In this document: one piece after another, positions 1-62,591 of the stretch
Layout of the letters: the number at the start of each line of letters is the position of its first letter
Position numbering within the stretch: position 1 is the first letter of the stretch
Source of the DNA: Bacilli bacterium
GTDB lineage: Bacteria > Bacillota_I > Bacilli_A > RF39 > UBA660
Direction: 5' to 3'
Length of the DNA: 62,591 nucleotides
NCBI GenBank assembly: GCA_900769635.1
Contig: CAAGHJ010000053.1
Coordinates: 1-62,591, forward strand
Translations under genes and position numbers: made by a program
Notes under the pieces: generated by a model
Seen by the model: the letters and a program-made list of their open reading frames with translations, nothing else
What the model was told of the DNA's origin: nothing
Database searches by the model: none

Positions 1-501
1 CCAATTAGAACAAGGTCCATAAGTACTACTAGTATTTGTTTTATTATAGAAGTATTCATTTAATAAGACATTTAGATTAGCTTTTACTCCCGTAGTATTA
101 CCTGTCCAGTCATTTTTATAATCTGAATAAGTACCACTTGTATTAGTTGTATTATATGCTCCCCAAGAGTTTCCTCCTAAAGAACGAGATCTTATTAATT
201 TAACCATCTCGGTACTTTTACCGTGACTATTACTATCAAATACTCCTATTATACGATACATATCATTATTAAACTTAACATAGTTATTAACTTCTGCACC
301 TACATATCTATATTCGTGAGAATTGGTATAGTATACACCACTAGCTCCAGCACTCCAACTAGATCCTTTATTTAAGGCTTTAACTGTATCTACTAGAGTT
401 GTGCCGACGGCATAACTCTTTTTAGAGTTAAAGCCTATTATTATTATAGTTATAGTTACTAATAATATAGATATTATTATAATTATTTTTTTTTTACTCA
501 T
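1..501 (-). CDS. secreted protein, 5' part only (3' end runs off the window); paralogue of the C-terminal domain of the 532..3042 protein
   Basis: ATG at 499-501 after an AAAGGA SD, open to position 1 (167 codons). N-term MSKKKIIIIISILLVTITIIIIG anchor, then ...HEYRYVGAEVNNYVKFNNDMYRIIGVFD...NDWTGNTTGVKANLN, matching the neighbour's C-terminal domain. Not in the ORF track because no stop lies in the window. Confidence 0.75.
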   Translation of the reverse strand, partial: MSKKKIIIIISILLVTITIIIIGFNSKKSYAVGTTLVDTVKALNKGSSWSAGASGVYYTNSHEYRYVGAEVNNYVKFNNDMYRIIGVFDSNSHGKSTEMVKLIRSRSLGGNSWGAYNTTNTSGTYSDYKNDWTGNTTGVKANLNVLLNEYFYNKTNTSSTYGPCSNW

Positions 502-531
502 ATATATTTATCCTTTCTTAGGTTAATATAT

Positions 532-3042
532 TTATTCTACTATATACGGATTATCAAAGGTACCATCCCCACCGGTTACAGAGACGGTAGATTTTAGATA
601 GAAGGTGGGACGCCACCCGCTCGGACCGTCCGCGCTGCCGCTGCTTGCACGGCCAAGACCCACGATCCACACAACATTAGCACCAGAGGCATAAGGGGTT
701 AGAGTCCACTCGTAGCCTTTATAGAGCCAGTTCTTATTTCCAAAGTACTGTGCACTCTGAGTAGTTGTATCAGAGCTTGTATAATAACTACTAGCGTATA
801 AGTAATCACTTAAATACATTAGTCCTATCTTAGCATCAGTAGTAGTACTATAAGATCCAGAATTAGCCCCTGTACAAGAGTTCCCACCTCTTTCGCAGAG
901 ATACCAGTTCTGTTTGCTTTGATCAGTACCACTTCCATAGAGATACCAAGTAGTTGTTTCAATGGAGTTTAAGGCACTACTATCTATACCATAACCGACT
1001 ATATCCGAACAATCATTAGTTCTATAATTAGTATTATAATAGAAGTAAGTCCAATTAGAACAAGCTCCATAAGTACTACTGGTATTAGTACGATTTGCAA
1101 AGTATTCATTAGAAAGGATATTAAGATTAGCTTTTACTCCCGTAGTATTACCTGTCCAGTCATTCTTATAATTAGAATAGGTACCACTTGTATTAGAGGA
1201 GTTATATGCTCCCCAAGAGTATCCTCCTAAAGGGTTTGCCATTATTAACTTAACGAGATACTGTCCTGTTTTACCGTGACTATTTTCATCAAAGACACCT
1301 ATTATTTGATACATATCATTATTAAACCAAACATAGTTATTGGGTTCTGCTCCTATATATCTATATTCATGATATTTAGTAGTACCGTCAGAGGCGGTAT
1401 AACTATTAGTTGCATAGAGGCCTTCGGCACCAGCTTCCCATTCATTGCCTTTACTTTGTGACATAATTAATTTAACAACATTTTCTTTTATATTTACTTG
1501 TTTTTTATATTTATATCTATTACCATTATTATCTTCTAATACATATAAGGCAGTAGTAGACTTAGTAAGGCCTTTAGTAGTAGCAGGCTTTACTAAGACT
1601 ATCTTACAGCCTGCTCCATTATCTTTACAAGTTACTTGGGTAGATAGATCTATTACTTGTCCTTTTTCTATGGATATAGCACTTGTATCTATACTAGGTA
1701 CTGTACTTGCTTTAACAGTAGATGTTATTCTTATATGACCATCTCCGGAGTGGCCTGTAACAGTGCTACCGCTATTATCAGTAAAGGATTGATCACCCGC
1801 TATGGTAGAGGCATCGGTTAAGTAATAACTACTATTTAAAAGGCACCCTGATGGATAACTAGAAGCTGTACTAGAAGTATACACGTATCCAGAACCACCG
1901 CCACCTCCACGATCATCATCTCCTGAACCATCTGGAACAGTTCCGGAACCGCCATACCAGCCTCCTCCTCCTGCTCCTCCATAACCACTGCTTAAATAAA
2001 CTCCGCCTCCACCAAATCCAAATCCTCCAGCATAATTTGCTGTAGTATTAGAATTTAATCCTGAAGTTGTTTGCGTAGTTATTGTATATGAAGTTGAATA
2101 TCCAGAATATGTTTGTGTTCCACCTTTTCCGCAATAATTAGAGTTTGCTGTGAAACTTTCAGACGAAGACCCTCCAGATGTTCCACCTCCATACATTCCT
2201 TTTTTAGAGGTTGATCCATCAGAACCACCGCCACCAGCAACTATTACTCTTGCATATAGTGAATCAGTTCCTAGTCTTATATCAGAGGCTCCGCCTCCAC
2301 CTTTATGTGTATGTCTATAACCTCCACCATTAAATCCACCATTGCATATACTCGAAGTACATGTTCCAGAATTACCAGATCCTCCAACATAAACATAAGC
2401 ATTTGTTGTTTCAGTTAAAGTTAGTGTTCCGTAAGAATATCCACCTTTTCCTGCATAAGTTGCACTATTTCGATATCCTCCTTCAGCACCCCATACTTCT
2501 AGTTTGTGGGTTCCTGCTTTAAGAGTAACAGTTTGTACGGATCCTGTATAACTATAATCCGTTGTTGTTGTTTTTGTTTCGCCGGCATCTCCACTGGGTT
2601 CATTTCCGGTATTAAAGGTTTCTGTTATAAGGGTTTTTCCTTCTGTTAAACCTAGTTCATTACTATCACTTCCAGCAACACCTATATTTAAAGTTATATC
2701 ACTACTAGTGTTATTTATTACTAATAGTTCTACGGGTAAGATAGAACCGTTAGTAATACTACCACTAGTAGCGTTGGCACTCCAATCTATTTTATATATT
2801 CCTATATCATCTGTTTTGGTACTGGGAGATACCATTTCATAGAATACTCCGTAATATATACTTCCTCCAGTATCGTTATTTACGTTAACCATTACACTGG
2901 TATTAGATCCTGCGGGAACGGTTACTTTTTTGTATTCGTATATTTTAAGAGTGGTTTCGATATTGGATGCTGCTTTCATAGTTACTATATCTTTACTGGT
3001 TGTTTTTTCAGGGAGAATAAGGCAAAAGAGGAATACATACAT
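532..3042 (-). CDS. large secreted multidomain protein with a glycine-rich (PF12810 / ALK-LTK GRD-like) central domain; N-terminus apparently frameshifted
   Basis: 836-aa ORF. Gly-rich motifs VWGAEGG, VYVGGSGNSG, GGFNGGGY, GGGGASDIR, VIVAGGGGSDG, GGGGWYGGSG, RGGGGGSGY. C-terminal ~330 aa are paralogous to gene 1..501. No SD or signal peptide at the annotated ATG. Confidence 0.8.
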   Translation of the reverse strand: MYVFLFCLILPEKTTSKDIVTMKAASNIETTLKIYEYKKVTVPAGSNTSVMVNVNNDTGGSIYYGVFYEMVSPSTKTDDIGIYKIDWSANATSGSITNGSILPVELLVINNTSSDITLNIGVAGSDSNELGLTEGKTLITETFNTGNEPSGDAGETKTTTTDYSYTGSVQTVTLKAGTHKLEVWGAEGGYRNSATYAGKGGYSYGTLTLTETTNAYVYVGGSGNSGTCTSSICNGGFNGGGYRHTHKGGGGASDIRLGTDSLYARVIVAGGGGSDGSTSKKGMYGGGTSGGSSSESFTANSNYCGKGGTQTYSGYSTSYTITTQTTSGLNSNTTANYAGGFGFGGGGVYLSSGYGGAGGGGWYGGSGTVPDGSGDDDRGGGGGSGYVYTSSTASSYPSGCLLNSSYYLTDASTIAGDQSFTDNSGSTVTGHSGDGHIRITSTVKASTVPSIDTSAISIEKGQVIDLSTQVTCKDNGAGCKIVLVKPATTKGLTKSTTALYVLEDNNGNRYKYKKQVNIKENVVKLIMSQSKGNEWEAGAEGLYATNSYTASDGTTKYHEYRYIGAEPNNYVWFNNDMYQIIGVFDENSHGKTGQYLVKLIMANPLGGYSWGAYNSSNTSGTYSNYKNDWTGNTTGVKANLNILSNEYFANRTNTSSTYGACSNWTYFYYNTNYRTNDCSDIVGYGIDSSALNSIETTTWYLYGSGTDQSKQNWYLCERGGNSCTGANSGSYSTTTDAKIGLMYLSDYLYASSYYTSSDTTTQSAQYFGNKNWLYKGYEWTLTPYASGANVVWIVGLGRASSGSADGPSGWRPTFYLKSTVSVTGGDGTFDNPYIVE

Positions 3043-3110
3043 AGTGATAATATTCCTACGATTATTACTATTAGTAAGTAACTTTCTTTTATTATATATT
3101 TATTTTTCAT
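2985..3110 (-). CDS. 41-codon ORF encoding a signal peptide, probably the true 5' end of the 532..3042 gene, displaced by one frame
   Basis: GGAGG SD 7 nt before ATG (3108-3110). Encodes MKNKYIIKESYLLIVIIVGILSLCMYSSFALFSLKKQPVKI*. Overlaps the long ORF in the +1/-1 relation, and the frames cross at an A6 tract (T6 on the + strand, 3003-3008). Confidence 0.6.
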   Translation of the reverse strand: MKNKYIIKESYLLIVIIVGILSLCMYSSFALFSLKKQPVKI

Positions 3111-3698: not shown

Positions 3699-4784
3699 TT
3701 ATAATTCTTCCTCTTGTCTTGTAGTTCTATTATAGTAATAGATACCATAACCTAATGCTCCTAGGCCTATAAACCATATAAAGCCCATTGCTGCTGCTCC
3801 TGTTTTTGGAGTGTATATTACATCTACTATAACGTCTTCATCAGGCATTGTTCCTCTTACAACGTCTTTATCTGGTGAGTAGCCATTAATACTTGGTGAT
3901 GTTACATCGTATTTATTACCGGCTTTTTCTTCTTTACTATATGTAGGGGCTGCGGTTTTTCCTCCTACTTCATCATACCAGTATCTTATTGTTAGGGTTG
4001 GATTTTTTACTTCGGGTTCATCACAAATATTGAAAGTCATTTTGTATAGCATTGGTGCATATATTATTGCTTCTCTTGCATCTGAGTTTGCATCTACAAC
4101 GTTATTATTTGCATCTATAAACTTGCCAGCATCGTTCTTTCTATATACTACGTTACCGTTTGTTTTCATATTGTTTACATCGGCTTTTTTGTAGATTCTT
4201 TTGGCTTTGAATGTTCCTTGTAAATTTTTATTTACTTTTTTGAATGTGTAATCTGTTACTGTTGATATTCCTGATAGGCTGGCTTTACTTAGTTCGGGTA
4301 CTGTAAATATTCCGTTTTTAGAATTTTGGTTACTTAGGTCTTTATTTGACCAAGCTCCGTGTCTTACATATAGGGCTCCGTTTTTTACGGTTGTTCCTTC
4401 ATCGAAAGTAGTCATTGTAGTCCAGAAATCGGTTAAGTCTCCTATTGGAATTACTTTTCCTGATCCTTCTACGGCTTCGATGGTTGCTTTATCGGATATG
4501 TTTAGACCGCTAAAATCGATATTAAAGGTTCCGGTCCCTTTACAAGCACCACTAGCATCCATTCTTTCTGATGTACTACACGTTTCATAGGTATAGCTAT
4601 CGCCATTTCCCATTGCTTTTTCTAGTGTGCTTACCCATTGTTGGTCTGAGAAGTATAGGTAGGCATCTACTTGTTTACAGGTATTATCTGTTACTCCTGC
4701 AGATACTTCTTTGGGGTTATATACAAATATGCATAGTGTTAGGACTAGTATTACACTAAATACTCCTAAAATCTTCTTTTTCAT
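3699..4784 (-). CDS. cell-surface protein with a C-terminal MucBP-like domain and a sortase-type sorting signal (TPKTG)
   Basis: Signal peptide MKKKILGVFSVILVLTLCIFV...VSAG. MucBP-like LTIRYWYDEVGGK...INGYSPDKDVVRGTMPDEDVIVDVIY. Then TPKTG, a hydrophobic stretch and NRTTRQEEEL. Confidence 0.75.
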   Translation of the reverse strand: MKKKILGVFSVILVLTLCIFVYNPKEVSAGVTDNTCKQVDAYLYFSDQQWVSTLEKAMGNGDSYTYETCSTSERMDASGACKGTGTFNIDFSGLNISDKATIEAVEGSGKVIPIGDLTDFWTTMTTFDEGTTVKNGALYVRHGAWSNKDLSNQNSKNGIFTVPELSKASLSGISTVTDYTFKKVNKNLQGTFKAKRIYKKADVNNMKTNGNVVYRKNDAGKFIDANNNVVDANSDAREAIIYAPMLYKMTFNICDEPEVKNPTLTIRYWYDEVGGKTAAPTYSKEEKAGNKYDVTSPSINGYSPDKDVVRGTMPDEDVIVDVIYTPKTGAAAMGFIWFIGLGALGYGIYYYNRTTRQEEEL

Positions 4785-4894
4785 TCTTTTTCTTCCTTTC
4801 CTTGGGTACTACCCTTCTACATTAATAAGGATATCATAAAAGATATTTTTTTGCAATATATTTTTGGAAATTAATTGTTTTTTTGGTTTTTTCG

Positions 4895-8967: not shown

Positions 8968-10320
8968 ATGGATAGAATGGCAATGAATGATTTAATTAAA
9001 TGGAAGAATAAGGAAAATAGAAAGCCTTTACTTTTATATGGGGCAAGACAAGTGGGCAAGACTTATCTAGTTAAGGAGTTTGGAAGGAAATATTTTAAGG
9101 ATATTATTTATGTTAACTTTGAAACTAATGATATTGTGGCGAAGATTTTTGAGGAGAATATTACTCCTGAGCATATTATTAAGAATTTGGAGCTTATTTT
9201 TAACAAAAAGATTGAGGCGGATAAGACGTTAATTTTCTTTGATGAAATTCAGAAAAACACAAGAGCTCTTACTTCTTTTAAGTATTTTTGTGAGGATGCT
9301 CCTAACTTTTTTGTTATTGGAGCTGGTAGTTTACTTGGTGTTCCTATTAATAAAAAGGATTATTCTTTTCCAGTTGGGAAGGTGGATTTTCTTACTATAT
9401 ATCCGCTTAGTTTTGAGGAGTTTTTAATTAACACTGGGAATAGCCTACTTTTAGATAAAATAAGGGAATGTTTCCAAAATGACACGCAGATGGACGAGGT
9501 TATTCATAACAAGGCTTTGGGGCTTTATTATGATTATTTGACAGTTGGGGGGATGCCCGAGGCTCTTTCTGAGTATATAAGGAGTGGTTCACTTGTTAGT
9601 TCGGCAGATTATCAAAGAGCAATTATAGAGGCTTATAAGAATGATATTACGAAGTATGCACCGGATGCGAGTATGGCAAATAGAATTATTGCAACGTTTA
9701 ATTCTATTCCTGTGCAACTTGCTAAGGATAATAAGAAGTTTCAGTATAAGTTTATTCAAAAGGGAGGCACGAGTGGGATTTTTGGGGATGCTATTAATTG
9801 GCTTATTAATGCAGGAATTGTCAATAGTTGTGTGAAGACAAAGATTGGTGTACCACTTAAAATGTATGAGGAGATGGATTCGTTTAAGCTTTATATGAAT
9901 GATGTGGGGCTACTAACTAATTTGAGTGAGTTTCCGCTTTATCTTATTCATAATAGAGAGGCTGTTAATGAGATGATGATGGGAATGCTGACGGAGAATT
10001 ATGTTGCGAGTGCACTTAAATATAATGGGGTTAATCTTAATTATTTTAAGAATGACTTTGATAGTGAAATTGATTTTATTTTGCAATCTGAAAAGGGGAA
10101 TATCATTCCTTTGGAGGTTAAATCTAGCACACATACGAGGTCAAGGAGTTTGTTTAATTATGTAAAGGAGTATGAGCCTAAGTATGCAATTAGGGTTAGT
10201 GCAAAGAATTTTGGATTTGTGAATGGTATTAAGTCTGTGCCTCTTTATGCGGTATTTTGTATTAACAAAGATAGTCTTGATAGACAGATTGATAAGGGGG
10301 AAAGGAATAATAAGGAGTAG
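8968..10320 (+). CDS. AAA ATPase with a C-terminal DUF4143 / PD-(D/E)xK-like domain (COG1373 type)
   Basis: Walker A LLLYGARQVGKTYL, Walker B LIFFDEIQ, C-terminal EIDFILQSEKGNIIPLEVKSS. GGAGG SD. Confidence 0.8.
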   Translation: MDRMAMNDLIKWKNKENRKPLLLYGARQVGKTYLVKEFGRKYFKDIIYVNFETNDIVAKIFEENITPEHIIKNLELIFNKKIEADKTLIFFDEIQKNTRALTSFKYFCEDAPNFFVIGAGSLLGVPINKKDYSFPVGKVDFLTIYPLSFEEFLINTGNSLLLDKIRECFQNDTQMDEVIHNKALGLYYDYLTVGGMPEALSEYIRSGSLVSSADYQRAIIEAYKNDITKYAPDASMANRIIATFNSIPVQLAKDNKKFQYKFIQKGGTSGIFGDAINWLINAGIVNSCVKTKIGVPLKMYEEMDSFKLYMNDVGLLTNLSEFPLYLIHNREAVNEMMMGMLTENYVASALKYNGVNLNYFKNDFDSEIDFILQSEKGNIIPLEVKSSTHTRSRSLFNYVKEYEPKYAIRVSAKNFGFVNGIKSVPLYAVFCINKDSLDRQIDKGERNNKE

Positions 10321-11743: not shown

Positions 11744-13018
11744 TTAGTCTTCCTTGATTATTTCATAGATTAATTTGTAATCGGGCTCTTTGTTTGGAGT
11801 GATTTGGAATATGTTTCCTTCGATATCGATGTGCTCTTTTCCGGTGTGGAGGCGGAGAATTGTGTCATTTTGGTGGATGGGGTCATTGGGGCGTTTTAGT
11901 ACTTCGATACCGGCAGTGTAATCGATTTGGTCCTCTTTATTTAGGCGGCCACTACCGAGGTGCATAGAGAGTTTACCTAGTTCGTGGGCATTGAGATGGG
12001 TTAGATATCCGGCTTTATTGGCGAGGACATCAAAGGTGTAATTGCTTATGGGGAAGTTCTCAATATCGGCTTTTTGGTACTTGATATATTCGAGGAATTT
12101 TATATAGGCACGACCACTTTCAAAGTTGGTTTGGACAAGGCGTGCTGCTTCGATAGTTGGTATTTCAAGACCGAGAGCAACCATTTCTGTAGCGAGGTTT
12201 AGGCAAAGGGTGGTGAGGTTTGATGTTTTGTGATTTTTGAGAATATCGATAGCTTCTTCTACTTCAAGTGTATTGCCTATATTTTGACCGAGGGGTACAT
12301 CCATATTGGTAAGGAGACAGACTACTTTTATATTGTAGCTTTTGCCTATCTTTATCATTAGATGGGCGAGTTTACGAGCGGATTGGATATTATGGATAAG
12401 GGCTCCTGTTCCTACTTTTATATCAAGAACGAGTTTTTTTACACCAAGGGCTATTTTTTTACTCATAATGGATGAGGCTATAAGGGGGAGGGATTCGACA
12501 GTACCGGTTACATCTCTTAGGGCGTATATTTTTTTATCGGCAATGGCAATGTCTTCGGTTTGGCTGGTTATGGAAAAGCCGATTTTATTTACCATATCTA
12601 GAAATTCGTCTAGGGTTTGATTTACTTTTAATCCTGGTATGGATTCTAGTTTATCGATTGTTCCTCCGGTATAGCCTAGTCCACGGCCACTCATTTTGGC
12701 TACTTTTACCCCACAAGATGCTACTAGGGGGGAGATTATGAGTGTTGTTTTATCCCCTACTCCTCCGGTTGAGTGTTTATCTACTACGTTATCTCCTAGG
12801 TTATTTAGGTCAAGTATTCTACTGGCTCCTACCATTGCTTTGGTTAAGTTAATTGTTTCTTTTTCGGTCATTCCGTTTAGGACAATGGCCATTAGAAGGG
12901 AACTCATTTGGTAGTCTTTGATGTCCTCACTTAGGTAGTTTTTGATGACGTAGTTTAGTTCATCGTAGGTTAATTCGCCTTTGTTTTTTTTCTTGGTTAT
13001 TATATCTATTATATTCAT
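11744..13018 (-). CDS. pdp: pyrimidine-nucleoside (thymidine) phosphorylase
   Basis: DKHSTGGVGDKTTL, MSGRGLGYTGGTIDKLESIPG. Confidence 0.9.
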   Translation of the reverse strand: MNIIDIITKKKNKGELTYDELNYVIKNYLSEDIKDYQMSSLLMAIVLNGMTEKETINLTKAMVGASRILDLNNLGDNVVDKHSTGGVGDKTTLIISPLVASCGVKVAKMSGRGLGYTGGTIDKLESIPGLKVNQTLDEFLDMVNKIGFSITSQTEDIAIADKKIYALRDVTGTVESLPLIASSIMSKKIALGVKKLVLDIKVGTGALIHNIQSARKLAHLMIKIGKSYNIKVVCLLTNMDVPLGQNIGNTLEVEEAIDILKNHKTSNLTTLCLNLATEMVALGLEIPTIEAARLVQTNFESGRAYIKFLEYIKYQKADIENFPISNYTFDVLANKAGYLTHLNAHELGKLSMHLGSGRLNKEDQIDYTAGIEVLKRPNDPIHQNDTILRLHTGKEHIDIEGNIFQITPNKEPDYKLIYEIIKED

Positions 13019-13053
13019 ACTAACCTCTTCTTTCTTTTTATTCTTTTTTATTT

Positions 13054-13602
13054 TTATTCTTTATAGGTTGAGGTAAATAGTTCTTTTTCGTTACTTTCTT
13101 CCTCAGTATAGTTTATTTTGGGTAAGTCTTCTTTACAAGATAGTCCAAAATAGTCTAAAAAGTCATCTGTTGTTTTGTATAATATGGGTCTACCTGGGGC
13201 ATCGGACTTACCGGCTTCTTTGATTAGTCCTTTGGCAACTAGTCTTCTTAGAACGAAAGTTGATTCTACACCTCGCATTTCATCTATTGTTATTCTGGTT
13301 ATGGGTTCGTTATAGGCTATTATGGCAAGGACTTCGAGAGCGGCTGCTGATAGGGCATAACCGGTAGAATTATCTAAGAGTCGTTGGTAGTACTCTTTGT
13401 GTTCAGGGCGAGTTGTTAATTTGAAGGTATTGCCTAGATAGTTTATGCGAAGTCCACGGTTTTCTTTTTCGTAATTTATTTTTAGTTCATATACTAATTT
13501 TTTGGCTTCTTCTTCGGTTATTCCGAGGACATTTTTTACCTCATCAAGAGTTAGTCCTTGGTCGCCTTGCACATAAAGAAGGCCCTCTAATATTCCTAAC
13601 AT
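13054..13602 (-). CDS. scpB: segregation and condensation protein B
   Basis: LEGLLYVQGDQGLTL...LSAAALEVLAIIAYNEPITRITIDEMRGV; overlaps scpA. Confidence 0.9.
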   Translation of the reverse strand: MLGILEGLLYVQGDQGLTLDEVKNVLGITEEEAKKLVYELKINYEKENRGLRINYLGNTFKLTTRPEHKEYYQRLLDNSTGYALSAAALEVLAIIAYNEPITRITIDEMRGVESTFVLRRLVAKGLIKEAGKSDAPGRPILYKTTDDFLDYFGLSCKEDLPKINYTEEESNEKELFTSTYKE

Positions 13603-34180: not shown

Positions 34181-35119
34181 TTACATTTCTACTAATTCCA
34201 TATAATTTTCGGGGAAGCCCATTCTATCTAGGACTCTTGCTATGGGAATGGAATCTACTCTTCCATCTAATTTTTCGATTTCGTATTCTATTTCTTTTAG
34301 CATTACACGGAATTCACTTTTTCTTAATAGGTATTTTAGCATTATTATGACGGCAAATATATCGTTTTTTCCATATATATACTCTCCGTCCATTTTGTTT
34401 ATTCTTAATTTTCTATGATACTCGTTATCGTCGATGTATTTCTCGGTCTTGTGATCAAATACTATATCTTCGTGAGCACATAAATTTCTATAATTGGATA
34501 GTATGGGAAGAAATTCATTCATATATTCGACAGATACGCCAAAGGTATCGGCAACGGCTACTTGGTCTTCTTTCTTTAATATGGAAAATAGTTCACATAC
34601 TAATCCGAAAGATAGGACTTTCACTAAGACCCACATTGGTATATAGCCGTATTTGTTTAGGTAATGGATTGTTGCATTATGGCGAGAGGCATTTATTCTT
34701 ACTTGTCGTTTTATTTTTTCTATGATGTCTTTTACTCTTCTTTTTTTTGTGGGATCATTTGTAAAACTTTTATGATTTAAGTAGTCTTTTTCCATATATC
34801 CATAGTTTTTTGATAATTGATATGATATGACGCTTTTTAATTGGTTTTCTATTATTAATAGATTTTTGAACATTATATTGCGAAAATATCTATCAAACAG
34901 AAATATGGAATATAGTTCTCTAAATGTTGATGCGGGGACAAATGTTTTATCACTATAAGAATTCATTAAAACATGTCTATACCCACTTATGAAAAAGTAA
35001 TTTTCTCTTAGGAGTATTTCTTTTGTTTCTGTTACATCTTCTATTATTAGGCCTTTTTCTTTTAGTATCTCTATTTGTTCATCTAAGTTTTTAAAACTTT
35101 TTACTTTCATTTCTTTCAC
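34181..35119 (-). CDS. Abi_2 (AbiD/AbiF-like) abortive-infection family protein
   Basis: LKEKGLII.D...A...L...NYFFISGY, FLFDRYFRNIMFKNLLIIENQLKS, SFGLVCELFSIL, LSNYRNLCAHED. Confidence 0.75.
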   Translation of the reverse strand: MKEMKVKSFKNLDEQIEILKEKGLIIEDVTETKEILLRENYFFISGYRHVLMNSYSDKTFVPASTFRELYSIFLFDRYFRNIMFKNLLIIENQLKSVISYQLSKNYGYMEKDYLNHKSFTNDPTKKRRVKDIIEKIKRQVRINASRHNATIHYLNKYGYIPMWVLVKVLSFGLVCELFSILKKEDQVAVADTFGVSVEYMNEFLPILSNYRNLCAHEDIVFDHKTEKYIDDNEYHRKLRINKMDGEYIYGKNDIFAVIIMLKYLLRKSEFRVMLKEIEYEIEKLDGRVDSIPIARVLDRMGFPENYMELVEM

Positions 35120-61716: not shown

Positions 61717-62063
61717 TTAATCACCTAGTATAGAATATTTGTTTTTTTGATTTGTATTCTTTTAAACATAGTTTAATTATTGTTATATTCAAATTTTTTA
61801 ATAATTTATTTATGTAATATTTTATTATATTAATTATTTTGAATTACTCTTATTTAAAATAATTATTTTTAACATATAATTATGCTGTATGTGCATAAGT
61901 TCGGGAACAAAAATATATATTATTTGAAAAATTTATCTTTTATTTTTTGTAAATTATTATTATAATATTTTTATGTTTTGCATTTTTGCTAATTAAAACT
62001 GTCATCACTCGAACCTGAAGGTTGGTTTTTTTGTCAGTTAAATTATAAAACATAAAAAAAAAT

Positions 62064-62168
62064 ATTGGCAACGTCCTATTTTTGCTAATACTATCGTCGG
62101 CGCTGAAGTGCTTAACTTCTGTGTTCGGGATGGGTACAGGTGGGTCCACTTCGCAAATATCACCAATA
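62064..62168 (-). rRNA. rrf: 5S ribosomal RNA (short form)
   Basis: Minus sense: ...GGTGATATTTGCGAAGTGGACCCACCTGTACCCATCCCGAACACAGAAGTTAAGCACTTCAGCGCCGACGATAGT...GGACGTTGCCAA. Ends are approximate. Confidence 0.9.
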
Positions 62169-62235
62169 TATAATTTATATAAAGTTCTCTGAAAACAAGA
62201 TAATGTGTTATTTCATCAAATTAGGTTTAATCTCG

Positions 62236-62591
<356 letters not shown>

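Follow-up and report, generated by a model that had tools for sequence, protein, structure and literature searches.

A GC-rich, adenine-poor patch in an uncultured gut Bacilli genome is very probably the variable region of a diversity-generating retroelement target gene

Overview

A short GC-rich patch lies within the last ~50 codons of an 836-aa open reading frame (532..3042) in the 62,591-nt stretch of DNA analysed here (the window). Very probably, this patch is the variable region (VR) of a target gene of a diversity-generating retroelement (DGR), takes its composition from the scaffold of a template repeat (TR) and was written from a GWRP-type TR. The analysis documents an uncharacterised DGR family of uncultured human-gut Bacilli. 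Its cassette is flanked by paired paralogous targets and is present in some strains and absent from others; some targets are remote, and target loci recombine with one another. The value of the result is one of annotation; the general understanding of DGRs is unchanged.

The features discussed below are as follows; all are on the minus strand.

532..3042 (-): DGR target gene t1, an 836-aa open reading frame as it stands, taken from the list of open reading frames; it comprises an N-terminal region, an ALK_LTK_GRD glycine-rich domain and a 322-aa DUF6273-like domain that carries the VR C-terminally
535-1500 (-): DUF6273-like domain of t1, with the VR at its C-terminus
600..690 (-): VR, the stretch with homology to TRs in related DGRs; the encoded peptide is ASGANVVWIVGLGRASSGSADGPSGWRP-TF
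607-690 (-): 84-nt core of the VR, within 600..690
607..618 (-): segment at the 3' end of the VR core, read directly from the sequence
588-606 (-): 3' flank beyond that segment, 19 nt, ACCTTCTATCTAAAATCTA, the same as in actively diversified VRs
742..768 (-): a further, shorter variable stretch, TTTQSAQYF; it lies beyond the TR homology, at a distance of 17 codons upstream from the VR
3002..3110 (-): original start codon (3110) and signal-peptide/anchor segment MKNKYIIKESYLLIVIIVGILSLCMYSSFALFSL, from translation and alignment with intact alleles
1..501 (-): t2, the paralogous target adjoining t1; N-terminal 167 codons of 340 aa, the remainder being left of the window

Composition of the patch

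Positions 601-670 contain 50 G or C in 70 nt (71.4%), the highest value of all 70-nt intervals in the window; the background over such intervals is 31.4% on average (sd 7.6%), and those with at least 60% GC start at 563-631 only. In its core, 601-670 has 8 adenines per 70 nt on the coding strand. The 84-nt VR core has 9 coding-strand adenines, the minimum of all 84-nt intervals (mean 35.5, sd 6.5); two intervals have 9 or fewer, and both lie at the 607-690 patch. The counts for 601-670 agree with the initial annotation, which had given 50/70 G+C and 8 adenines in a 69-nt core and had quoted a codon string that matches the sequence. The encoded peptide is rich in glycine, serine and alanine. 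No second copy of the patch and no TR copy was found within the window (blastn, word size 7).

In related DGRs, G and C make up 67-81% of the TR scaffold once its adenines are set aside; an active VR of L022 reaches 74% GC. The patch is GC-rich and adenine-poor because it follows this scaffold and because most of the adenines have been replaced. Since 81% of the non-adenine positions are G or C in a TR of the L019/L020 type, a high-GC donor is not needed to account for the composition. Such a donor had been the initial annotation's alternative. It is extremely improbable that the patch has no link to a DGR and is either a horizontally acquired piece of a high-GC genome or a compositional quirk of a loop rich in Gly, Ser and Ala. 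Local GC is nowhere else in the window so extreme, and the peptide is of the type that such a loop would have; however, the nearest sequences, TRs and VRs, come from this low-GC lineage itself, those TRs share the GC-rich scaffold, and mismatches are concentrated at TR adenines, as detailed below. A blastn search of the patch for a foreign donor gave no match in phage or plasmid collections. Recombination visible at the locus is from paralogue to paralogue.

Compositional anomaly alone can flag a DGR target whose reverse transcriptase (RT) and template are out of view. The flag in this case, set in an AT-rich genome, is an island of ~90 nt that is high in GC, poor in adenine and placed at the 3' end of a gene.

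DGR cassettes in related genomes

In related genomes (given below as L numbers), genes for bAvd and an RVT_1 reverse transcriptase and an 84-91-nt TR adjoin genes homologous to t1; the TR aligns exactly to the patch. The gene order is target1, orf, avd, RT, TR, orf, target2, with the two paralogous targets flanking the cassette and a conserved ~200-nt spacer between the TR and the small open reading frame. The TR flank reads TATAGGGTAGTCTT...GGGCCTCTG. In L003, the RT matches RVT_1 (E=8e-16), the TR lies at 12985-13068, and Avd matches both bAvd of Pfam (E=3.2e-9) and DivGenRetAVD of NCBIfam (E=4.2e-11), in each case below the curated cut-off. Further cassettes are found in L004, L005, L019-L023 and L027; RVT_1 stands beside homologous targets in L003-L005, L019-L023, L025 and L027. 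Avd beside the RT is present in relatives only (PF22296 is listed for L019-L027). The TRs of L003, L004 and L005 give 91-nt blastn matches to exactly the patch-equivalent part of homologous VRs.

Differences between TR and VR are adenine-specific. VRs of L019, L020 and L022 differ from their own TR at 10-21 of 27 adenine sites and at 0-1 of 57 other sites. When the window VR is compared with the L019/L020 TR, which comes from a near-conspecific genome, 19 of 27 adenine sites and 7 of 57 non-adenine sites are changed (Fisher p=2e-7); all seven of the latter changes are at third codon positions. Other TR types fit the window VR worse, with 11-23 non-adenine mismatches. A shortened GWRP variant in L025 removes one of the seven mismatches; GSRP-type (L027) and AARP-type (L026) TRs are also found, and no exact parent of the window VR was found among the TRs compared, these three included. 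The TR codons beneath the AGC, GGC and GAC codons of the window are AAC, which bears out the suggestion in the initial annotation that these are randomised AAC codons. Its reading of the patch as a DGR variable region is likewise supported by the TR homology, the cassettes in relatives and the adenine-specific mismatches.

Hypervariability is seen throughout the family. In 120 homologues, the block AS-xxxx-VW-x-V-xx-G-...-P-xx-RP is variable and rich in N, S, Y, D and G, and its flanks are invariant. In the 90% identity cluster of the window protein (15 of 30 members listed), variation peaks at residues 786-810; per-column variability also has a peak at residues 761-768, as well as in the VR, and this peak marks the further variable stretch at 742..768.

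A GC-rich constant segment and an IMH-like sequence are present at the 3' end of the VR and are imperfectly repeated in the TR; GC-rich constant flanks of TR and VR, and an IMH with a GC-rich start, have been described (PMC5758913). The VR carries GGGTGGCGTCCC followed by ACCTTCT, and the TR GGGTGGCGCCCC followed by AACTTCT; the two diverge beyond this point. The 3' flank at 588-606 equals that of L019_t2, L022_t2 and L007_t2, and the GC-rich run and 3' flank together show one C-to-T change relative to active VRs.

The proposed mechanism would start from a cassette between two paralogous targets, as it stands in relatives. The TR transcript would be reverse-transcribed with random bases placed opposite adenines, and the mutated cDNA would then replace the VR. 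Thirteen AAY codons and one ACG codon would be randomised in this way, on a loop or hairpin of the DUF6273-like domain. The window VR would have been written from a GWRP-type TR and may have reached this gene through retrohoming in trans or through recombination with an allele diversified earlier.

Remote targets are acted on in trans in this DGR family. The VR of L009 differs from the L019-type TR at 15 of 27 adenine sites and at 0 of 57 other sites, with no RT within 10 kb.

Fold of the variable domain

The glycine-rich domain of t1 is recognised by Pfam (ALK_LTK_GRD, residues 170-441, E=1.8e-44). In the DUF6273-like domain, a Pfam search of the window protein gave no match; the Pfam DUF6273 threshold is reached by 15 of 87 diverse relatives. 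The target domain family comprises 2,325 clusters at 50% identity and lacks a dedicated Pfam model. Searching the PDB by sequence, with the single sequence and with two profiles, returned nothing meaningful.

An AlphaFold2 model of the domain, made with a diverse alignment, has a pLDDT of 96.8 and a pTM of 0.94; in it, the VR occupies strands E276-281 and E284-289. The best solved structure found by Foldseek is the IgA peptidase of Thomasclavelia ramosa (9qa6; 316 aligned columns, E=3e-8, 16% identity, TM 0.47). DUF6273 phage proteins match as well (E values are given as 1e-5 to 1e-7 and as reaching down to 2.5e-6), and there are weak matches to C-type-lectin-like domains and DUF1566. DUF6273 domains have been described as C-type-lectin-like DGR targets (PMC10743442, PMC11792537). 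The model thus places the VR on the C-terminal strands and loops of a predicted C-type-lectin-like (DUF6273) fold; the initial annotation had compared the C-terminus with the tips of C-type-lectin-like domains, and the confident model is in agreement with this. The DUF6273-like domain is probably a surface ligand-binding domain.

[quoted passage not shown] Both come from gut Bacilli-type organisms; the IgA peptidase domain is not known to be DGR-diversified. The IgA peptidase paper reports that the DUF6273 domain has no effect on catalysis. No functional inference, IgA binding included, is therefore drawn from this match.

Absence of the cassette from the window and its left flank

RT, Avd and TR are absent from the window and from the 10 kb to its left; similarly, no RT, Avd or TR spacer is found in the window, L001, L013, L016 or L024. 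On the window and left flank, tblastn with the family RT, Avd and small open reading frames gave chance matches only, and blastn with the TR and spacer gave only chance matches or the VRs themselves. Two YxDD-motif open reading frames from a six-frame scan of the window were rejected as RTs; they are an Abi-like protein and a tRNA-synthetase-like open reading frame. The statement in the initial annotation that the window holds no RT or TR is thus confirmed. Its proposal that these be sought to the left was answered in part: none lies within 10 kb, and cassettes are found beside homologues in related genomes. The window closes with a 5S/23S rRNA operon and so probably stops where its contig does. 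A scan of genome contigs gave six loci only, none of which belongs to the genome of the window. A search with the TR flank/spacer pattern in viral contigs and JGI metagenomes gave no match; the first pattern was too strict for the L019-type spacer.

The gap between t1 and t2 is 30 nt; at the same place, L003 has the 2.5-kb cassette. The t2 start codon is at 501, and L001 (12542-13564) is the same DNA as the t2 region, extended leftwards. The t2 VR is also GC-rich (59-60%) and is 12 nt shorter due to a 12-nt deletion; the four members of its 90% cluster all share one VR sequence, and the cluster representative is found on 17 contigs.

In t1, a 1-nt deletion (CCCT-GAAAAAAC, within 3002-3017) leaves the signal-peptide/anchor segment in a different reading frame from the remainder of t1. 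Alignment shows L013 and L016 to be intact at this site; the deletion recurs in the independent assemblies L001 and L002.

The window t1 differs from that of L013-L015 by 35 changes in ~2.6 kb (34 substitutions and the 1-nt deletion; ~1.3%). Across the window, L001, L002 and L013-L015, the VR shows one synonymous non-adenine difference. Adenine-site polymorphism between strains, which the initial annotation had suggested as a check, is seen in the family, where between-strain variation is confined to the VR and to adenine-templated positions, and not in the window allele. The assemblies that share the window VR could be one widespread clone.

The VR in this strain lineage is likely to be an orphan that is no longer rewritten. 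This is based on the lack of a cassette in the window and 10 kb to the left, the near-invariance of the VR, the 12-nt deletion in the t2 VR and the frameshift in t1.

Origin of the window VR

A near-conspecific contig of 1.38 Mb carries an orthologous cassette-less locus (locus A) and, ~190-200 kb away, a second locus (locus B) that has both an RT and a TR of the GWRP type. The TR usual for the t1 gene is of the SARP type; the window VR fits the GWRP type.

The arrangement on this contig would permit the window VR to be a live remote target, at which a cassette elsewhere in the genome (e.g. at locus B) still rewrites 600-690 in trans. The L009 VR provides a precedent in the family, targets at distances above 100 kb have been described (PMC5758913), and the near-identity of the GC-rich run and 3' flank to those of active VRs is in keeping with such a role. 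However, live rewriting is unlikely. VRs beside the L019/L020 TR have 0-1 non-adenine mismatches to it, whereas the window VR has seven; its one synonymous difference over five other assemblies stands against ~1.3% divergence in the gene; no GWRP-type variants of the window allele occur among the cluster members listed; and, in the 1.38-Mb genome itself, the locus-A VRs misfit the locus-B TR (15-18 of 57 non-adenine mismatches).

The sequence around the two VRs bears on how a probably orphan VR came to be of the GWRP type. Upstream of the t1 VR, the sequence keeps its locus-A character (95-98% identity) as far as the 5' boundary of the TR homology, which is exactly what retrohoming predicts. 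In the 54 nt after the TR homology, t1 has ~9 differences from near-conspecific alleles, and these are not explained by retrohoming alone. Of the t2 sequence, the ~120 nt that lead up to its VR are closer to locus-B t2 (92-95% identity) than to locus-A t2 alleles (72-82%); this converted tract reaches beyond the TR homology.

It is a serious possibility that the patch was gained by homologous recombination with a diversified target, through paralogue conversion or allelic replacement; its ultimate origin would still be a DGR. Both the t2 tract and the differences after the t1 TR homology point this way, as does P0260, an 850-aa relative (69% identity) with nearly the same tail (STVSVTGGDGTFDNPY). 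On the other hand, t1 stays locus-A type up to the TR homology, and no donor sequence with the window VR was found.

A more specific scenario, which we put forward only tentatively and regard as rather unlikely, is a switch of VR type. Locus A would have lost a SARP-type cassette, and its orphan VRs would have been overwritten with GWRP sequence from the locus-B DGR ~200 kb away, by trans retrohoming in t1 and by paralogue conversion in t2. If this is true, one cassette that survived has taken over the targets of another that was lost, in an uncultured member of the gut Bacilli whose ~1.4-Mb genome encodes up to six DUF6273-like surface proteins.

Comparison with known systems

The family resembles the DGR of Bordetella phage BPP-1 (mtd VR, TR, avd, brt) in its adenine-specific TR-to-VR mutagenesis (PMC5758913), in having Avd with the RT (here in relatives), and in its VR, which forms the last ~30-45 codons of a C-type-lectin-like domain and has a GC-rich constant 3' end. 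Unlike BPP-1, it is chromosomal rather than phage-borne; two paralogous targets flank the cassette of relatives, and the window itself has no cassette. The BPP-1 GC-rich hairpin/cruciform downstream of the VR, which is non-essential (PMC5758913), has no counterpart in window 500-720; there is only an AT palindrome, past the stop codon.

As in cellular DGRs of the Treponema denticola TvpA and Legionella LdtA type (PMC5758913), the targets are cellular surface proteins, with several related targets per genome and some far from the RT (L009; locus A versus locus B). The target domain is DUF6273-like in this family, in contrast to FGE-sulfatase or DUF1566, and the remote VR has seven non-adenine mismatches to the available TR and is invariant between assemblies.

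DUF6273 targets of gut phages (tentaclins of nd4/nd12; Faecalibacterium prophages) also have the VR at the C-terminus of a DUF6273-type, C-type-lectin-like domain (PMC10743442, PMC11792537). In contrast to these, the window protein falls below every Pfam DUF6273 threshold, its ~320-aa domain is fused to an ALK/LTK-type glycine-rich domain, and the genes around it are housekeeping genes of the bacterium, none of them from phages. Compared with the RTs of nd12 and FP_Lagaffe, the RT of the family shows 28-31% identity.

Composition and identity of the patch

A GC-rich, adenine-depleted patch at 600-690 (-) falls within the last ~50 codons of an 836-aa ORF (532..3042 (-)), hereafter target gene t1. 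The initial annotation had described it correctly from the sequence alone. GC content is 71.4% at 601-670, whereas 70-nt windows average 31.4% (sd 7.6%), and 70-nt windows of at least 60% GC occur nowhere else in the 62.6 kb. The 84-nt core (607-690) has nine adenines on the coding (minus) strand, the minimum of all 84-nt windows (mean 35.5, sd 6.5).

The patch is a variable region (VR) of a diversity-generating retroelement (DGR), in a DUF6273-like, C-lectin-like domain. This was the main interpretation offered initially; it is borne out by adenine-biased mismatches and by DGR cassettes in relatives. When aligned codon by codon with the template repeat (TR) of related loci L019/L020, the VR is changed at 19 of 27 adenine sites and at 7 of 57 other sites (Fisher p=2e-7); all seven non-adenine changes are at third codon positions. 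AGC, GGC and GAC codons had been proposed as products of AAC, and AAC codons do underlie them in this TR. In L025, a partial TR variant reads AAT at codon 6, which eliminates one of the seven non-adenine mismatches; variants of the L019-type TR therefore circulate. By alignment, the VR fits the other TR types much worse, with non-adenine mismatches of 23/61 (L003), 20/56 (L005), 12/56 (L004) and 11/56 (L027).

The unusual composition is explained by the template: non-adenine positions of the L019/L020-type TR are 81% GC, and most adenines have been replaced. The alternative raised initially, a foreign patch from a high-GC donor, is unnecessary, and phage and plasmid collections contain nothing that matches the patch. 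GC content reaches 74% in active VRs of the same family, and GC-rich constant TR/VR flanks are a described DGR feature (PMC5758913).

DGR cassettes in related loci

The TR of relatives aligns to the window patch and lies within complete cassettes. L003 belongs to a MAG of uncultured Bacilli recovered from Hadza gut samples; its layout, shared by L004 and L005, and that of a second locus type are as follows.

L003 gene 1: 860-aa orthologue, C-terminal domain 88% identical
L003 gene 2: 122-aa ORF
L003 gene 3: accessory protein bAvd (Pfam E=3.2e-9; NCBIfam DivGenRetAVD E=4.2e-11)
L003 gene 4: RVT_1 reverse transcriptase (RT), 364 aa, E=8e-16, YMDD motif
L003 element 5, 12985-13068: TR
L003 element 6: conserved spacer of ~200 nt
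L003 gene 7: 94-aa ORF
L003 gene 8: 348-aa paralogous target
Second locus type (locus B; L019-L023): 507-aa target, bAvd, RT, TR, 345-aa target

The RT of locus B (P0142) is present on >300 contigs, and its TR encodes ASGANNVWNVNNGNANNNNTNNPNGWRP. VRs flanking this TR are changed at 10-21 of 27 adenines and 0-1 of 57 other bases, and they vary from sample to sample despite an identical RT protein; adenine mutagenesis at this locus type is canonical and apparently active. The RT is 26-31% identical to phage DGR RTs (e.g. nd12, FP_Lagaffe).

The TR core is 84 nt long; a 99-nt VR with a 15-nt insertion (L020 8938-9036) adjoins an intact cassette. In L005, the RT is broken into 65-aa and 285-aa ORFs (3895-4891; frameshift or assembly error), while its two VRs remain adenine-specific relative to the local TR (15-18/28 adenine sites, 3-4/56 other sites). 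The L004 TR (9379-9462) fits the middle of its VRs (7203, 10754) poorly, with AGA AGC GAC in the TR and CGC GCG GGC in the VR; apparently, either this TR was altered after the latest homing or a different TR served as template for the VRs.

Target protein and hypervariability

Pfam ALK_LTK_GRD covers residues 170-441 of the 836-aa ORF (E=1.8e-44); Pfam gives nothing for the C-terminal ~320 aa, and >2,000 homologues of this domain are found in metagenome proteins. With a diverse alignment drawn from 50%-identity representatives (2,325 clusters found at E<=1e-3), structure prediction gave pLDDT 96.8 and pTM 0.94, compared with only pLDDT 31 for an earlier model from ~72%-identical homologues. 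Among solved structures, the model best matches the Thomasclavelia ramosa IgA peptidase 9qa6 (E=3e-8 over 316 aligned columns), whose N-terminal domain is annotated as DUF6273 (PMC12402451); C-type-lectin-like domains are weak matches ranked after it. Many DUF6273 phage proteins in BFVD match the model (E=1e-5 to 1e-7), and Pfam DUF6273 is hit by 15 of 87 diverse relatives. Such domains have been described as C-lectin-like targets of DGRs, the VR lying at the C-terminus (PMC10743442, PMC11792537). In the model, the VR spans domain residues 271-298, across strands E276-281 and E284-289.

Homologue C-termini have invariant flanks, NKNWLYKGYEWTLTPYAS and RP(T/S/A)FYLKS, around a ~26-residue block that is rich in N/S/Y/D/G/A and different in nearly all homologues. 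Among 15 listed of the 30 members of the 90%-identity cluster of the window protein, variation peaks at residues 786-810 (<=6 residue types per column); other columns have about 1.0-1.5. There is one further variable feature:

742-768 (-): TTTQSAQYF, a second short stretch of variation, located 17 codons before the VR in a part with no TR homology

This stretch differs among close homologues (e.g. QGTSY, IPSVQ, DNAYY) and may form an adjacent loop that co-evolves with the VR.

Absence of the cassette at the window locus

No DGR cassette was found in the window or in the 10 kb to its left, viewed via metagenome contigs L001 and L002, whose sequence matches that of the window exactly for 13 kb. 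Target t1 is separated from t2, the adjacent paralogous target, by 30 nt (L001 12511 to 12542), where L003 has the 2.5 kb cassette. Near-conspecific loci L013-L018 and L024 are also cassette-less, with flanks 95-98% identical. Between the target 1 stop codon and the target 2 ribosome-binding site, the cassette (orf122, avd, RT, TR, orf94; ~2.5 kb) is either there in full or cleanly missing. The intervals compared are:

L003 10973-13485: cassette
L001 12512-12541: cassette-less
L016 12581-12591: cassette-less
L024 9983-10000: cassette-less

Identity to L001 is 88% for L003 and 95-98% for the cassette-less loci.

L024 is on a 1.38-Mb contig which also bears locus B (RT and TR), about 190-200 kb off. 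Trans action does take place in this DGR family: the VR of L009 differs from the L019-type TR at 15/27 adenine sites and 0/57 others, with no RT within 10 kb.

An RT candidate from a motif scan, ORF 34181-35119 (-), has an Abi-like motif (NYRNLCAHEDIVF...YIDD) and is not a reverse transcriptase. In L003 and L024 the target gene is immediately preceded by an AbiEi_4 gene, which is absent there in the window. Immediately past the target pair on its downstream side, some 3 kb beyond the left edge of the window (L001 15582-16724), are genes for an IS605-family OrfB/TnpB (Cas12f-like) and a HerA/DUF87 ATPase, kept in L013, L016 and L024. At the right edge are a 5S rRNA gene (62063-62167 (-)) and a 23S rRNA 3' end (62235-62591 (-)); this end of the window is probably a contig break within an rRNA operon.

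Activity of the variable region

The window VR is probably an orphan in this strain, and frozen. The opposite may hold, with the VR still active, the cassette search having covered the window and 10 kb leftwards; mismatches, VR invariance, a deletion in t2 and an N-terminal frameshift point to the frozen state. The VR has seven non-adenine mismatches to the near-conspecific TR, compared with 0-1 for VRs adjoining that TR. Over ~2.6 kb, 35 positions (34 substitutions and a 1-nt deletion) separate the gene from L013-L015; just one of them, a synonymous T/C difference outside the adenine sites, is in the VR. The VR therefore drifts at background rate. It is common to three distinct protein variants. 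The t2 VR (L001 13403-13474) is 72 nt, 12 nt shorter than all TRs. The four members of its 90% cluster all share it unchanged, and the cluster representative is on 17 contigs.

The 1-nt deletion lies near 3010 in the window, L001 and L002 (two independent assemblies), with CCCT-GAAAAAAC against CCCTTGAAAAAAC in L013. It uncouples a signal-peptide/anchor segment, MKNKYIIKESYLL...FALFSL (3002-3110 (-), start at 3110), from the remainder of t1. As this segment is out of frame, the 836-aa ORF begins at an internal out-of-frame ATG; t1 may be a pseudogene or an allele in the phase-off state.

Origin of the t1 variable region

The VR of t1 is of GWRP type; the remaining members of the 860-aa cluster have SARP-type VRs. 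Two routes are possible. Retrohoming in trans could have written the GWRP-type VR into t1, as the sequence upstream stays locus-A type (the t1/t2 locus of the window; 95-98% identity) as far as the 5' boundary of TR homology. Recombination could also have brought it in: the 54 nt past TR homology differ at about nine positions from near-conspecific alleles, and t2 has a tract of ~120 nt before its VR (L001 13280-13402) that is 92-95% identical to locus-B t2 of a near-conspecific genome, and only 72-82% identical to locus-A alleles. Since this converted tract reaches past TR homology, recombination between target loci certainly took place at this locus; in t2, the identities indicate gene conversion between two DGR target loci.
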